Below the pieces are notes generated by a model. It made no database searches. It was not told the DNA's origin and saw only the letters and a list, made by a program, of their open reading frames with translations. From a virus (taxonomy: Duplodnaviria > Heunggongvirae > Uroviricota > Caudoviricetes), in IMG/VR virus record IMGVR_UViG_2744054914_000003: a DNA stretch of 42,128 nt. The stretch is one strand, 5' to 3'. The position numbers and the translations under genes are program-made. Below are positions 33,852 to 42,128 of the stretch, piece by piece (positions within the stretch are counted from its first letter, which is position 1; every line of letters starts with the position of its first letter).

Positions 33852-34196
33852 ATGAGGGGTATTATTTTTCTGTTAGCTGCCTTTTCTGCGTGCAGCGCGT
33901 GGGCGGATGGCTTCACGGTTAAATGCGGTGGCTACACTATGGTTGCAAACCAGGGCGAGTTATCGACTATCAACGGTGAAAGAGTTACCTCTCAAAAAAT
34001 CACCGAACTGGGTACCAATGGTTTGAAAGTAGACATGGGGCTTATGCCTGCCAAAGACGGTAACAACTACGGCTTTGAATACATTCGTCGCCCTGGTACT
34101 GAAACGCGATTCCTGAATGTCCAGCTTCTGCAGAACAGCATGGATGCGCCGAAAATCATCGGATCTTTCCCTTGTAAAAAAGTGGCTGGGCGATGA
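33852..34196 (+). CDS. Secreted protein or lipoprotein with N-terminal signal peptide
   Basis: 114-aa ORF; signal-like N-terminus MRGIIFLLAAFSACSAWADG. Confidence 0.5.
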   Translation: MRGIIFLLAAFSACSAWADGFTVKCGGYTMVANQGELSTINGERVTSQKITELGTNGLKVDMGLMPAKDGNNYGFEYIRRPGTETRFLNVQLLQNSMDAPKIIGSFPCKKVAGR

Positions 34197-34361
34197 TTTT
34201 TGACGTCCATAATATTATGGATGAACTGTTGCCAATTGCGCTAAATTTAACAAAATAATACTGGTTAACGCATTTTTTGAACCATCTGTACACAGTAGTT
34301 GTCTATACTTTACCTTAAAGGTAAACTCTGCGCTCCACTGATGTTCACTATGGGAGGGGAT

Positions 34362-34601
34362 ATGAGGAAAATCGTTAATCGTTACTTAGCCGCTGCCGGT
34401 AGTGTTATGGACATTATGCCGACTACAGATTACTGGCAATATGCTGCTTCTGGATCTGATTGTCGGGCAATAAGAAGTGATGTTAAAGTCATTGCAAGTG
34501 ACATGAACAGAGTTATCAGGTATGAGTTCAAAACCCCGCAAGCAGGCGGCCGTTCTCAAAAAGCATCAGGAAAACAAAGCGTCGCAAAAAGCCGTTCCTG
34601 A
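34362..34601 (+). CDS. Small hypothetical protein (uncertain; overlaps the next ORF in another frame)
   Basis: ATG at 34362 preceded by GGGAGGGG; longest ORF from 34299; AT-rich promoter-like region upstream at 34200-34300. Confidence 0.3.
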   Translation: MRKIVNRYLAAAGSVMDIMPTTDYWQYAASGSDCRAIRSDVKVIASDMNRVIRYEFKTPQAGGRSQKASGKQSVAKSRS

Positions 34602-35094
34602 TTCGGATGGTATCGACGAAGATATTGATTCCTCGGAATATGATGAGTCTCAGGAAGTAGTGGAAAAGCTGTCTGCAGTTGCCAACCTTGATCCTGAGCT
34701 AAAATCGAAGTTAACACCTGAACTTCTTGAGAGAGTTTCTAAGAACCCGAAGGTTATTGCCATGTTTCAGCAGGAGTCTTTTCAGGGACCACTCCCACCT
34801 CCTGCTATGCTCTTACAATATAATCAAATATTACCCGGCGGCGCTGAGAGAATTTTCAGGCTAACCGAAAAAGAGCAAGAGCATAGGCATAAGACGCAAA
34901 GTGATGCATTACTTGGTGCGGTTTCACGCGACAAACGTGGGCAATGGATGGGATTTTGCATTGCAATGGTAGTGCTTATAATGGCTGCGTTTTTTGCTAA
35001 TCGCGGTAACACTTGGTTCGCAGGTACTCTTGCTACTTTAGATCTCGTAGGATTAACTACAGTGTTTGTTTATGGTAGGAAGAAACCTAAATAA
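34522..35094 (+). CDS. Membrane protein with K-rich N-terminus and two C-terminal hydrophobic helices (tail-module moron)
   Basis: 190-aa ORF; hydrophobic segments (WMGFCIAMVVLIMAAFF; AGTLATLDLVGLTTVFVY); lower GC than flanking tail genes. Confidence 0.5.
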   Translation: MSSKPRKQAAVLKKHQENKASQKAVPDSDGIDEDIDSSEYDESQEVVEKLSAVANLDPELKSKLTPELLERVSKNPKVIAMFQQESFQGPLPPPAMLLQYNQILPGGAERIFRLTEKEQEHRHKTQSDALLGAVSRDKRGQWMGFCIAMVVLIMAAFFANRGNTWFAGTLATLDLVGLTTVFVYGRKKPK

Positions 35095-37456: not shown

Positions 37457-38133
37457 GCAAATACACCGAACTAATCACGAACTACCACGCCACCAAACCT
37501 AAATTTCTTGCACATGTTGATCTGATGACCCGGCCGCTTATTGATGTTGCGGCTGCCACCAGAGGGCTGATTACTGTATTTGATATTGACTCTGCGGTTG
37601 GTGTGCAACTTGACATTCTTGGATTGTGGATCGGACGTAGCCGTGTTGTCAGCCAGCCTATCTCAGGTGTCTATTTCCGCTGGGATACCGACGGGCTTGG
37701 ATATGATCAGGGGGTATGGCAGGGGCCATATGATCCTGATTCAGGATACATGTATCTCAGCGATGAAACTTATCGTGTCATTCTTAAAGCGAAGATTGCG
37801 ATTAATAACTGGGACGGACGGAATGATTCGCTTCCGGCAATCCTTGACGCTGCAACAGCAGGATCCGGACTGCGAATGCAGATTGTCGATAACCAGGACA
37901 TGACGATATCGGTCTGGGTCTTTCCTGATACTGATATTTCAGATGTATCGCATGAGTTAATTGCTGCAATTAAACAGGGATATCTCACAGTAAAAGCCGC
38001 CGGGGTGTGGGCGGGTGGCATTGAAACACCTTCGGTGGAAACCCCATCGGAAGGTTCAAAATTTTTTGGTTTTGATATGGATAACGAATTTATCAGTGGT
38101 TTTGATCTAGGGGCATGGGGAGTATTACTCTGA
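37453..38133 (+). CDS. Baseplate/tail-fibre attachment protein (Mu gp48-like)
   Basis: 226-aa ORF between baseplate J and the tail-fibre gene; TGATG overlap with fibre start. Confidence 0.5.
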
Positions 38134-38804
38134 TGGCAAAAAATGACTTTAAAGCATTCGCAACGGGTAAAAATGCCAATGTTATGTCGCAGGAGGAATG
38201 GGAAGCGTTGCCTGCGCTTTTATCTGGATTTACAGCAGGGAAAGCCTCCAGTGCGCAAGTCAATAAGGTTATTCGGCAGGCCAGCTTTATTGCTGCAGCT
38301 CTGGCCCAGTTTGTAAGTGATAAAACGCAACGGGATGTGCTTGATAATGGTGATCTGCCCGGTTTTGTTGAATTGCTGGGATCGGGGTTTGCTGTTGAAT
38401 ACCTGAGCCGCAAGAATCCGTTTGGTGATATCAAATCGGATGGCACGGTGAAAACGGCTCTCGAAAACCTTGGTTTGGGAGAAGCGGCAAAACGAAATGT
38501 GGGAACAGGGGAAAATCAGATACCTGATATGTCATCATATGCATCAGGTTCAGGCTGGCGAAAAATGCCAGATGGTTCAATTGAACAGTGGGGACGAATT
38601 AGTTTTCCTGGTGAACACGGGCCTGTATCCGCCAATGTTTCATTCCCAATTCCATTTACACAGACACCGGGCATTGTAATTGTGTGCGATGGTGGTTTCG
38701 GGAGCGGGAATATGTGGGGGGCGACCAACTGGAGCACTACCGGCTTCATAGCTCACTGCAATTATGGTCTTGAAGGTGGTGCGTTTTTCGCTAAGGGCTG
38801 GTAA
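38133..38804 (+). CDS. Tail fibre (constant N-terminal part plus currently expressed variable C-terminal part)
   Basis: ATG at 38133 overlaps upstream stop; crossover site lies inside this ORF at 38458-38483; followed directly by a tail-fibre assembly gene. Confidence 0.7.
38458..38483. repeat. hix/gix-like inversion crossover site (left), inside tail-fibre gene
   Basis: CTCTCGAAAACCTTGGTTTGGGAGAA resembles hixL (TTCTTGAAAACCAAGGTTTTTGATAA) as recalled; core AAACC-TT-GGTTT. Confidence 0.7.
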
Positions 38805-39247
38805 TGATGAAATATCTGTACGTAAACAACCTGGCATATCCTTACGAACTTCAGTCTCTTTATGTTGAAAAAGGTGAATGGCCTGAAGAAAAAGGTGTTG
38901 ATATAGACGAAGTAATTTTCAGGGAATATTTCTATGATACACCACCAGAAGGAAAATACAGATGTGTCGGAGAGGATGGACTGCCTGCATGGGCAGATAT
39001 TCCTCCACCAACACGTGAAGAACAAATTGCATCAGCCGAAACTAAAAAGCAGCAATTGATTAACCAGGCCAACGAATACATCAACAGTAAACAATGGCCA
39101 GGTAAAGCATCAATTGGTCGTCTGAAAGGTGAGGAACTGGCGCAATATAATTTGTGGCTGGATTATCTGGACGCACTGGAACTGGTCGATACTTCCGGTG
39201 CGCCAGATATTGAATGGCCTACGCCTCCGGCAGTTCAGGCCAGATGA
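38804..39247 (+). CDS. Tail-fibre assembly protein (Tfa/U-like)
   Basis: 147-aa ORF with conserved Tfa C-terminal motif (YLDALELVDTSGAPDIEWPTPP). Confidence 0.75.
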   Translation: MMKYLYVNNLAYPYELQSLYVEKGEWPEEKGVDIDEVIFREYFYDTPPEGKYRCVGEDGLPAWADIPPPTREEQIASAETKKQQLINQANEYINSKQWPGKASIGRLKGEELAQYNLWLDYLDALELVDTSGAPDIEWPTPPAVQAR

Positions 39248-39821
39248 CGTCCGGCGCTGTGCTGGTATCTGTTGCCGTCACCGCGTCAATGTAATCCAGC
39301 ACAGCGTTAAGTCGGGTGTTTTCTGGCTGCGTCAGCTTCCGCCCAGCCTGTAATTTCAGTTGAATCAGACTGATGGAAGCCATTGCAGCATCAATCAGCG
39401 ACTGGCGCTGTGCTTCTGCCGCTTCTACTGCGGCGCTATGCTGTGCCTCGGTATCGGTCACCCATTTCTCACCATCCCATTTATCGTATGGCGTTAATGG
39501 GGCGATAGTGGTTGTATTTTCGGGGTAATCACCCGGAGTTGTGATTTCTTTGGCGTCTCCCGTTTCGGTGTTATAGACGATTTCTCCGCGATGGTCTGGC
39601 ACATATTCCCATGAGTTTAAATCCGCAGAGCGGCAGATGGCATAACCAGCTTTATATGTTCCTGGTGCATCTAAACAGGAACATGCCGGAATACCGACAC
39701 CAACAGCAAGATATTCAGTTGATGTGGAAATATATTCTCGTGTTTCACCATTATAATTATAGACAGTAATATCCCCCGCCTTCGTGGCAATAAACTCGCT
39801 ATTTAATACGGCATTATCCAT
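39219..39821 (-). CDS. Alternative tail-fibre assembly protein (Tfa'/U'-like), inverted orientation
   Basis: 200-aa ORF with matching Tfa C-terminal motif (LDYIDAVTATDTSTAPDVIWPELP); convergent with and overlapping the plus-strand Tfa. Confidence 0.7.
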   Translation of the reverse strand: MDNAVLNSEFIATKAGDITVYNYNGETREYISTSTEYLAVGVGIPACSCLDAPGTYKAGYAICRSADLNSWEYVPDHRGEIVYNTETGDAKEITTPGDYPENTTTIAPLTPYDKWDGEKWVTDTEAQHSAAVEAAEAQRQSLIDAAMASISLIQLKLQAGRKLTQPENTRLNAVLDYIDAVTATDTSTAPDVIWPELPEA

Positions 39822-40328
39822 TATGCAGCCCTCACGATGTAATTAAATGAAAGGTTACGAGGGCGCATTGATATCCATGCCCCGGTAAAATTATCCTCCG
39901 CTGTCCTTTGAGTACCCGTTATGGAGTTATCTGCTGATGCAGGAACATAATCGCTATTATTTCCTGCTTTAGGATTAGCTGGGTTTCCAACAGTTATAAC
40001 AGAATCAGCAGTAGCAAAAGCGATACCTACTTTGACATTAGTATTCAGATCGTAACCGTAATAATCCTGCAAAGCTGTACGAATAAATGTTGCAGCCTGA
40101 CCACTTAGCAATGAACGCCCCGTATCAATCCCTCTAGAATCATCCCAGCCACGAATAAACTCACCACGTAAATCAGGCAATTTATTTGTCGGGTAAGCCT
40201 TTGCCAGTTCCGGGTATTCTTCAGCAGAAAAAGCTGCTCCGTTGCATTTCAGCCAGCCTGTTGGAGGTGTCTCTGAAGGCCACGGAACAGGTGCACCAAC
40301 AGGTAATGCTGAACCTTCTCCCAAACCA
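39821..40328 (-). CDS. Alternative tail-fibre variable C-terminal segment (Sv'), promoterless until inversion
   Basis: Minus-strand ORF (39821-40369) with tail-collar-like motifs (PVGAPVPWPSETPPTGWLKCNGAAFS...LPDLRGEFIRGWDD); joins the constant part in frame at the crossover site. Confidence 0.65.
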
Positions 40329-40341
40329 ACGTTTAAGAAAA
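40315..40341. repeat. hix/gix-like inversion crossover site (right)
   Basis: Reverse complement reads TTTCTTAAACGTTGGTTTGGGAGAAG; core AAACC-AA-CGTTT, inverted relative to the left site. Confidence 0.7.
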
Positions 40342-40396
40342 TGCAGAGATTACGGCTAACTGGCATCATCCCCGGTTTTTATTCAGGGGATCCATC

Positions 40397-40657
40397 ATGC
40401 TTATTGGCTATGTCCGCGTATCAACAAATGACCAGAATACAGAATTGCAGCGTAACGCGCTGGAGTGCGCAGGATGTGAACTGATTTTTGAAGATAAAAT
40501 CAGCGGAACAAAATCAGCCAGACCGGGATTGAAAAAACTGCTCAGAACGCTATCAGAAGGAGATACGCTGGTTGTCTGGAAGCTGGACAGACTGGGGCGC
40601 AGTGTGCGGCATCTTGTCGTGCTGGTGGAGGAGTTGCGCGAACAAGGTGTTAATTTT
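40397..40657 (+). pseudogene. DNA invertase (Gin/Pin/Hin-family serine recombinase), truncated after about residue 87
   Basis: N-terminal 87 aa (MLIGYVRVSTNDQNT...LDRLGRS...REQGVNF) closely resemble Pin/Gin as recalled; similarity ends at about 40658 where AT-rich DNA begins; ORF runs on unrelated to 40792; C-terminal HTH domain absent. Confidence 0.7.
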
Positions 40658-40678
40658 AGTAGTTATGTTATTACAGGT

Positions 40679-40694
40679 GGGGGATTTCTCCCCC
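40679..40694. other. GC hairpin at the junction between invertase remnant and AT-rich cargo
   Basis: GGGGGA-TTTC-TCCCCC, 6-bp perfect stem, about 20 bp beyond the breakpoint. Confidence 0.35.
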
Positions 40695-40715
40695 TTATGC
40701 AGATTTTCTCGTTAA

Positions 40716-41561
40716 CTATTGGCGAAGTGGCCATATTTTTCTGTTTTTTAAAAAACTATCTTCAACTATATAACTGCAACAATGTTCACTAAGGCCATAA
40801 AAACTAATTATTCCATATTTATGAGAAGCTATATCAGACAGTTCTGCTAATACTGTGGCAAGCCAACGAGCGATGCTAAGAGAATAGAATCTTCCCCACT
40901 TTTGAACAATGGTATTTTGTCCAGTACGGATGGAGGCTGATATAAGGTCTTGCATAATGTTGGTACTTTCATTCATATACATGACCGTTGTATACGGTGA
41001 AAGAGTGGCATTGATAAACCTAGCATTTTCTTCAACACGTCTTTGTTCAACTGTATAATAATAATGTTTTTCAAGGATACTCTCGGCTACTTCTCCCCAC
41101 CATTTATTAATAGGTTCATTATTGGTTAAATTGGGGCTGCTTAATGAGGAGAAATTTGCGTAACGTCCCCGTCGGGCATCAGCAAAGGAATCTAAACATT
41201 CAAGTATTTTGTAGGTAATTTTATGTGTAGGACGTGAATATCTCAGAGATAGTTGCATTTTTTTAGAAATACTATCAACCTCGTTGGTTAATTCAATGAG
41301 CTTGTGTCCAAATTTTCTTACAATATTCTCGTCAGGCATTTTTCCTTTGTGTTCAATGGCATAGTGTGCAACAAGTATTAGTTTAGCAAGTCTCTCAAAA
41401 CCTACAGAAAGCCCAAAAAATGCTGTGTAATATTCACCTATTTTGTCTGCATAATTGGCTTTACCTATGGCTGTTGCCCCAGAACCAATGAGCTGTGTTA
41501 CTAAAGATGCTTCTCGGCCCAGAGCGTGCCATGCTGGAATATCCCAGGGATTTTTATTCAC
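40716..41561 (-). CDS. Hypothetical protein encoded in AT-rich cargo beyond the invertase
   Basis: 281-aa ORF with GTG start (forward CAC at 41559-41561); AT-rich; no motif recognised; does not match my recollection of McrA. Confidence 0.5.
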   Translation of the reverse strand: MNKNPWDIPAWHALGREASLVTQLIGSGATAIGKANYADKIGEYYTAFFGLSVGFERLAKLILVAHYAIEHKGKMPDENIVRKFGHKLIELTNEVDSISKKMQLSLRYSRPTHKITYKILECLDSFADARRGRYANFSSLSSPNLTNNEPINKWWGEVAESILEKHYYYTVEQRRVEENARFINATLSPYTTVMYMNESTNIMQDLISASIRTGQNTIVQKWGRFYSLSIARWLATVLAELSDIASHKYGIISFYGLSEHCCSYIVEDSFLKNRKIWPLRQ

Positions 41562-41689
41562 TTTATTATTTTCCTTTGCTCATAAATTTAAATTGTTTGA
41601 GTATCTCATAAAATATAAGGAGGTGGTTAAGGTTGTTGATCGCATATAATAGCTATTGAAAGTCAAGAACTCGGTTTTATGTTCTACCA

Positions 41690-41728
41690 CTAATTAATAT
41701 ATTGTGAGTCTGACAATATATTAATTAG
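41690..41728. promoter_or_regulatory. Perfect 16-bp inverted repeat with 7-bp spacer (putative operator)
   Basis: CTAATTAATATATTGT-GAGTCTG-ACAATATATTAATTAG, about 130 bp upstream of the 281-aa gene start. Confidence 0.55.
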
Positions 41729-41861
41729 TATGATCAAACCAGCCATCAACTGATTCCTTGTATCTTTCAGAGTCTCCAGAACAAAAGCCTTAACGAATTC
41801 CTTATTTGTGAGTGCATTACAAAAAGCCATTGTTGCAGGGAACGAGTATAAAACTCGCCAG

Positions 41862-42128
41862 CTACTGGAGCAGGCTACCTGATTGTCGATCGATTCCTGC
41901 GTCCATATAGTCGATGGTCTTCTGGAGCTCTTCGATTAGGGCAACAGCTTTTGCTCGAGAAATACATATTAGTTGATCCGGAAATTCTTGTAAGGGCCAG
42001 TTTGGTATACAGGCCATGTTATCAGTGAAGGATGCAGACAAGTAAACTTCATTGGTAACCAGAGAATAGCTTACCTCAAAATTGGTGAGTTCCGGCAAAC
42101 TGCTAACGTTTGACTCTTTTCTGCGCAT
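41862..42128 (-). CDS. Hypothetical small protein
   Basis: 88-aa ORF, ATG at window end (forward CAT at 42126-42128), AT-rich; upstream region lies outside the window. Confidence 0.4.
   Translation of the reverse strand: MRRKESNVSSLPELTNFEVSYSLVTNEVYLSASFTDNMACIPNWPLQEFPDQLICISRAKAVALIEELQKTIDYMDAGIDRQSGSLLQ

Follow-up and report, generated by a model that had tools for sequence, protein, structure and literature searches.

Small serine invertases of the Din family carry a resolvase-type N-terminal catalytic domain with a Ser9/Ser10 nucleophile, and their oligomerisation and rotation helix, helix E, spans approximately residues 100-135. Dimer/tetramer formation and the binding of sites depend on helix E and the HTH domain, while a Fis-bound enhancer lies in the 5' part of the invertase gene. 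In the G segment of Mu and the C segment of P1, host range is switched by inverting alternative fibre C-termini, and the invertases responsible, Gin and Cin, are both intact and encoded in cis. The P segment of the e14 remnant in E. coli K-12, which measures 1,797 bp, is arranged in the order fibre constant part, Sv and tfa, inverted tfa' and Sv', and the invertase gene pinE; its published repeats are TTGGTTTGGGAGAAGG and the complement CCTTCTCCCAAACCAA (PMC12529663). Invertases of one prophage can also act on the segment of another. PinQ and PinR, with only 38% identity to PinE, act in trans on e14 and invert its P segment (PMC12529663), and earlier work cited in the same study found that PinE acts on Mu G and on Salmonella H, and that Fin, from Fels-2, acts on H. 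These cases provide a precedent for flipping by the invertase of a different prophage, although in all of them the target element keeps an invertase of its own.

Here we describe a fibre switch of the same type at the right end of an E. coli prophage, for which trans action appears to be the only route. The locus shares with e14 P the gene order, the crossover core (TTGGTTTGGGAGAAG), a similar segment size (about 1.86 kb) and a combination of tfaE-like and collar-type cassettes. It differs from e14 P in that its invertase gene breaks off after codon 89, with foreign cargo behind it, and from Mu and P1 in that the element seems to depend on an outside enzyme. Whereas the e14 remnant sits at icd, the element described here is a different, complete-looking myovirus-type prophage at yfhL/yfhH.

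The window, by which we mean the whole stretch of 42,128 nucleotides that was analysed, corresponds to a prophage of approximately 42 kb integrated between yfhL (window positions ~1-261) and yfhH, which starts just beyond the window end. In the annotation of near-identical RefSeq copies, the prophage encodes an integrase, a helicase, a DNA polymerase, a repressor region and lysis genes, together with terminase, head and contractile-tail/baseplate genes. Its ends are formed by an exact direct repeat of 38 nt, located at window ~214-251 and at window-equivalent 42338-42375, which overlaps the 3' end of yfhL and marks the attachment-site core; attR lies ~210 nt past the window end. The last part of the window (41847-42128) is a conserved right arm containing a minus-strand ORF (41862-42128, phrog_17793), and this arm is common to family members with an intact pin and to those in which pin is differently truncated. 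Several GenBank records present relatives of this prophage as phages ('Escherichia phage vB_EcoM-611R5', 606R2 and others), and we considered but rejected these as proof of an active virion. The 611R5 record (ON470588.1, 'complete phage genome'), which has the same pin stub and cargo as the window, ends over its positions 40486-42739 in the host genes yfhH, pgpC and tadA, and because it contains these genes it reads as an excerpted prophage region and not as a packaged genome. The records for 606R2, 683R1 and 689R2 are sister records that were matched in the same search.

The fibre cassette has the classical layout of the Mu G or e14 P type. The expressed tail-fibre gene (38133-38804, plus strand; PGAP CDS WP_046960514.1) consists of a constant part, Sc, which extends to ~38470, and a variable part, Sv, and matches Gp53-like_C (PF21882, 7e-07). 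It is followed by the Sv-cognate tail-fibre assembly gene of 147 aa (38804-39247, plus strand; Pfam Caudo_TAP, 4.3e-33). On the opposite strand lie an alternative, tfaE-like assembly gene of 200 aa (39219-39821, minus strand; Caudo_TAP, 5.4e-32), which is silent here and occupies the expressed strand in strain MS20658, and the alternative fibre C-terminal cassette Sv' (39821-40329, minus strand; Pfam Collar, 6.1e-16), a promoterless phage tail collar cassette that is likewise silent here.

Two 26-bp crossover sites of the hix/pix type flank the invertible material and form its inversion endpoints. The left site (CTCTCGAAAACC-TT-GGTTTGGGAGAA, 38458-38483; inverted repeat I1) lies inside the fibre CDS, and the centre of the right site (TTCTCCCAAACC-AA-CGTTTAAGAAAA, 40316-40341) lies ~68 bp upstream of the pin ATG; a 20-nt inverted repeat found at 38465-38484 and 40315-40334 belongs to these two sites. 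Both sites are intact and inverted relative to each other, both fibre C-terminal reading frames are intact, and the core is identical to the e14 P-segment repeat as published (PMC12529663). What is missing from the cassette is a functional cis invertase, of which only the 89-codon stub is left. The Hin enhancer lies ~100 bp from hix (PMC3798978), and the equivalent DNA here (~40420-40500) falls inside the retained stub. A Fis-like 15-mer (GTATCAACAAATGAC) is found at 40418-40432, ~97 bp from the crossover centre. Because a scan of the stub for strictly paired Fis sites (G-N13-C around an A/T-rich centre, 46-50 bp apart) returned single sites only, the argument that the stub may have kept a Fis enhancer is a positional one.

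What remains of pin (40397-40663, plus strand) is a Gin/Pin-type serine invertase gene up to codon 89, as defined by Pfam, Gin structures and DNA alignment, and forms the beginning of an ORF of 131 aa (40397-40792, plus strand). Residues 3-89 match the resolvase N-terminal domain (PF00239, E = 2.9e-30), but the match reaches profile positions 2-98 of 145 only. Residues 1 to ~88 align with the Gin invertase structures 4m6f and 3uj3 (E = 1e-42 to 3e-42), with most positions identical. The stub keeps the LDRLGRS motif as well as Ser9, which is the serine in MLIGYVRVSTNDQ and takes the position of an Ala in Gin chain 3uj3 as deposited. In DNA alignments with intact alleles from two P2-like prophages (EA2, 199 aa; EFF60, 197 aa) and from the same prophage family (MS20659 pinE, 184 aa), homology stops at 40657-40663, so that 267 nt (89 codons) are retained. 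Past this breakpoint, ungapped DNA identity is 33%, compared to a background of 24% at other offsets, and since 29 of 511 offsets score as well or better, the remaining similarity is at chance level. A diverged continuation, suggested by phmmer and tblastn alignments extending to residues 110-112, was rejected because DNA identity in that region is that of chance.

Across the breakpoint, GC content drops from ~0.48-0.50 to 0.33-0.40, and the ORF reads through into foreign DNA for 42 unrelated codons and a stop (40664-40792, plus strand, defined by the ORF and the alignment). This tail overlaps the 3' end of a convergent cargo gene, to which it is antisense. With homology over at codon 89 and only unrelated read-through residues following, helix E is absent from the stub, and Pfam gave no match to an HTH domain in the stub ORF. 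Furthermore, tblastn searches with the C-terminal halves of two intact alleles, in all frames of the window and of the M-17 sequence extended through yfhH, did not recover the 3' half of pin (best E = 0.27). As it is without both the oligomerisation helix and the DNA-binding HTH domain, we infer from the domain architecture of the invertase family that the stub is an inactive pseudogene. It is already annotated as such in RefSeq, where PGAP labels every copy examined 'recombinase family protein; incomplete; missing C-terminus', and it is an ordinary member of a well-known family. A preliminary description of this DNA had reported a truncated Gin/Pin-type invertase at 40397-40792 that at about 40658 enters AT-rich, unrelated sequence and lacks the C-terminal HTH domain, and had attributed the loss to an insertion or a replacement. 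All of this is borne out, with the breakpoint accurate to within 6 nt, and the event can now be specified as a replacement. A GC hairpin (GGGGGATTTCTCCCCC) is present at 40679-40694, directly past the breakpoint and between the convergent stub ORF and cargo gene; a terminator scan called no canonical terminator there.

The nature of the event is evident from a prophage in strain MS20659, whose left 9 kb agree with the window at 100% identity. Past the intact pinE of this prophage come a 648-nt gene on the opposite strand and then DNA that aligns at 99% with the window from position 41847 on. The window therefore carries a replacement, in which a cargo block of 1.18 kb (40664-41846) stands in place of the 3' half of pin and a different gene. 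This block has a GC content of ~0.33-0.40, carries a single minus-strand gene of 281 aa and is absent from relatives with an intact pin. A simple insertion that displaced the 3' half of pin downstream was rejected, as homology resumes at 41847 in DNA that is not pin; because tblastn found no 3' half up to yfhH, neither a frameshift nor a 3' half pushed downstream accounts for the truncation.

A second member of the family, in strain P4, has an independent and shorter pin stub (105 nt annotated) in which homology ends at window-equivalent 40503. There the stub is followed by a fibre-assembly fragment and three other hypothetical genes before the sequence rejoins the window at 41847, such that positions 42765-45421 of the P4 locus correspond to 40397-41846 of the window. 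Since the window, P4 and MS20659 all differ in this interval, the region between pin and the right arm represents a cargo-exchange spot at which pin has been eroded at least two times. The spot resembles the cargo or defence hotspots of the P2-like type, found at the ends of prophages and next to tail-fibre/invertase modules, in that the genes between pin and attR vary from one family member to another, but differs from them in that cargo exchange took away part of a functional phage gene. DNA invertases have been reported as frequent residents of such hotspots (bioRxiv 10.1101/2024.10.15.618418). Gene content also varies at a second slot, in the baseplate module (window 33852-35094): according to annotation tables, the space between the same flanking baseplate/spike genes is filled by a 114-aa ORF and a DUF2335 gene in the window and M-17, and by other genes in P4 and NMBU_W05E18.

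The truncation junction was present in 43 of 5,426 complete E. coli genomes (region 40540-40780 covered to at least 80%) and on four IMG/VR contigs, and an exact search of one genome per species in GTDB gave no matches; the cargo block was found in 44 E. coli chromosomes. That the junction is common to 43 genomes indicates that the truncation was one old event. The same prophage family occurs with an apparently full-length, non-pseudogene pinE in at least 60 genomes, a count obtained with a padded composite query (the family-specific DUF2612/fibre N-terminus joined to pin 3' halves) and resting on annotation as pinE or recombinase family protein, with no pseudogene flag, plus a matched 3' half. 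Given this number, an intact pin appears to be the norm and the stub a derived minority state. Within the stub, sequence differences are distributed as a mosaic. Window positions 40297-40596 equal the pin allele of the EA2 P2-like prophage except for one mismatch, and diverge after that, while the stubs of a group of carriers resembling ST38 differ from the window at 36 positions in 40414-40591 and at one position in 40592-40663. The junction-proximal 70 nt, which all carriers share with nearly no differences, are thus an old common remnant, while homologous recombination with other prophages bearing pin has replaced the 5' part of the stub. The stub thereby provides the homology through which unrelated prophages exchange cassettes.

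If the switch had been locked since the truncation, as the preliminary description had thought likely, carriers of the same truncated allele should not differ by an exact inversion, and two independent pairs do. In the first, the window, M-17 and A4 have the same stub and cargo as MS20658 but the opposite segment orientation. MS20658 is 100% identical to the window over 40315-42128 and 99.95% identical over the left flank, while the segment 38465-40334 is reversed, with an identity of 99.84%. The same protein accessions are found on opposite strands, and Sc is fused in MS20658 to the collar cassette, giving an intact fibre of 281 aa (WP_021580412.1). In the second pair, NMBU_W05E18 and 15.TR.026_OXA are compared to 1296KP, which has identical flanking host proteins (yfhH, tadA, mltF and purL accessions); here, flanks of 4,206 and 1,993 nt show zero mismatches, and a segment of 1,834 nt is exactly reversed. 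Each orientation gives an intact, in-frame fibre ORF.

In both pairs, the outer half-sites are unmoved and the inner sequence is swapped, which places the exchange inside the 15-nt identical core. A length of 15 nt is far below that needed for efficient RecA-dependent recombination, and the core is the place where Din invertases cut. As the junction is common to sub-lineages whose stubs have since diverged, it is older than the flips, and the segment has therefore been inverted at least two times after the invertase was lost. Judged from these genome comparisons, the switch is orphaned and not locked: the segment has flipped since the truncation.

The flips are likely due to invertases supplied in trans, as the pattern of sequences suggests and as the preliminary description had proposed for any inversion that might still take place; this is the reading favoured by the evidence, even though about one-third of the carriers have no detected helper. 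Candidate helpers were sought with composite queries combining unique cargo and invertase sequence, and the extra matching places on each carrier chromosome were counted at blastn sensitivity. With a PinE-type 3' half as query, an extra place was observed in up to 17 of the 44 carriers. This first screen missed PinQ-type genes, for which a second query was added, and the PinE- and PinQ-type screens together gave an extra place in at least one screen for ~29 of the 44 carrier chromosomes, a number that counts matching places as opposed to verified intact genes, so that an extra place could be a second copy of the cargo and diverged recombinases are missed. In the ST38-like group, all three chromosomes in the 'flipped' state (22AR0747, MSB1_6C and 1296KP) have an extra place, compared to 10 of 21 in the other state, which is suggestive, in these small numbers, of an association between helpers and the flipped state.

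In ~15 of the 44 carriers, including A4, MS20658 and NMBU_W05E18, blastn against the chromosomes detected no second place of the PinE or PinQ type. The sole plasmid of MS20658, which was covered in full, has no annotated serine recombinase; the plasmid check also took in the first 50 kb of one NMBU plasmid. In these ~15 helper-free hosts the switch is, on this evidence, probably frozen for now. Because A4 and MS20658 have opposite orientations yet no detected PinE- or PinQ-type gene, their flips must date from an earlier host or from a transient or undetected enzyme.

We consider it quite probable that the switch is an orphan whose own pin has been cut, whose cis-acting parts have been kept and which flips when a compatible invertase is supplied in trans. 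In this scenario, the cargo block replaced the 3' half of pin and whatever lay downstream, cutting the gene after codon 89, while everything needed in cis was kept: the two 26-bp sites, the alternative fibre C-termini, each in frame and with an assembly gene, and the 5' segment of pin, the usual place of the Fis enhancer. A compatible small serine invertase arriving from another prophage, a plasmid or a superinfecting phage would then flip the segment, and in a host without such an enzyme the segment would stay frozen.

An alternative is that the switch is truly locked and that the differences in orientation arose by homologous recombination, either through import of a cassette from related prophages or through movement of the stub and cargo onto prophages of either orientation. 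The mosaic stubs, with their EA2 tract and the 36 versus 1 differences of the ST38-like group, fit such exchange, since they imply that recombination tracts end inside the stub, and so do the ~15 of 44 carriers without a detectable helper. However, in both pairs the flanks are 99.95-100% identical and the segment is 99.8-99.9% identical but reversed, with ends exactly in the 15-nt core. A recombination donor would have to be identical save for its orientation, and such a donor would itself imply an inversion, which makes this explanation unlikely. Far less likely again is that the 131-aa product has a function of its own, for instance as one part of a split recombinase that acts together with a second protein, or by regulating co-resident Pin proteins in a dominant-negative way. 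Its ORF is open, Ser9 and LDRLGRS are kept, the upstream region is retained, and flips have occurred in lineages without a helper detectable today. Against this, the stub is without helix E and HTH, the 42 residues of its tail come from read-through on the strand opposite the cargo gene, the window contains no partner ORF with the missing domains, and PGAP calls the stub a pseudogene.

The idea that a full invertase is really encoded, and that the truncation reflects an artefact of assembly or sequencing, or a frameshift, has only its a priori possibility in its favour and is hardly credible. The same junction is found in 43 independent complete genomes and four IMG/VR contigs, and beyond it there is no C-terminal coding in any frame (the best tblastn E value being the 0.27 given above), with downstream identity at chance. 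These results refute a sequencing error or frameshift and exclude the possibility, raised in the preliminary description, that the missing domain is encoded in frame after a sequencing error.

A truncated pin is ordinary biology and of low novelty, and its significance is mainly a point of annotation, in that an invertible fibre cassette with a truncated invertase next to it should not be taken for a frozen switch. Din-type sites are interchangeable among the enzymes of co-resident prophages, and in the present case flips have followed the truncation. The locus also illustrates how a phage function can be eroded when cargo turns over at the end of a prophage, such that the choice of host range then hangs on other mobile elements in the cell. 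Beyond this, it is of modest interest that cargo turnover has eroded pin more than once, and that the cargo carries a HEPN-like gene.

This gene (40716-41561, minus strand; WP_001039127.1) encodes an orphan protein of 281 aa that has no family in Pfam, PADLOC, PHROG or NCBIfam. Of its 486 homologues, the best 120 are 56-74% identical and belong to Enterobacterales, Vibrio, halomonads and Alphaproteobacteria. AlphaFold2 predicts an all-helical protein with good confidence (pLDDT 85, pTM 0.86); a Foldseek search with this model gave no match in the PDB, and HEPN domains are the best distant fold match. HEPN domains have a four-helix fold and the conserved catalytic motif Rx4-6H, and the invariant residues of the 281-aa protein include H86 in RKFGH (Rx3H spacing) and several arginines. 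The protein looks HEPN-like. The settings of its homologues include an Enterobacter island with an adjacent type I RM system, the gpA-portal slot of P2-like prophages in Serratia, where one has a PvuII RM system as its neighbour, and the end of a Klebsiella prophage, while one alphaproteobacterial homologue is solitary among housekeeping genes. A role in defence or as a moron is a reasonable guess, and the gene that displaced the end of pin is a reasonable, though putative, defence candidate. A broader proposal is that an orphan host-range device has been kept and is still flipped without its own enzyme, in some lineages (A4 versus MS20658) by way of superinfecting phages or plasmids that reset the host range of a resident prophage, or of an unrecognised recombinase acting on the pix sites, and that the HEPN-like gene could by itself be a new anti-phage system which prophages trade through the hotspot between pin and attR; taken as a whole, we hold this to be doubtful. 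In the AT-rich region upstream of the 281-aa gene, a near-perfect 20-nt palindrome with a 1-nt spacer (ACTAATTAATATATTGTGAG / CTGACAATATATTAATTAGT) occupies 41689-41729 and could, from its sequence, be an operator.
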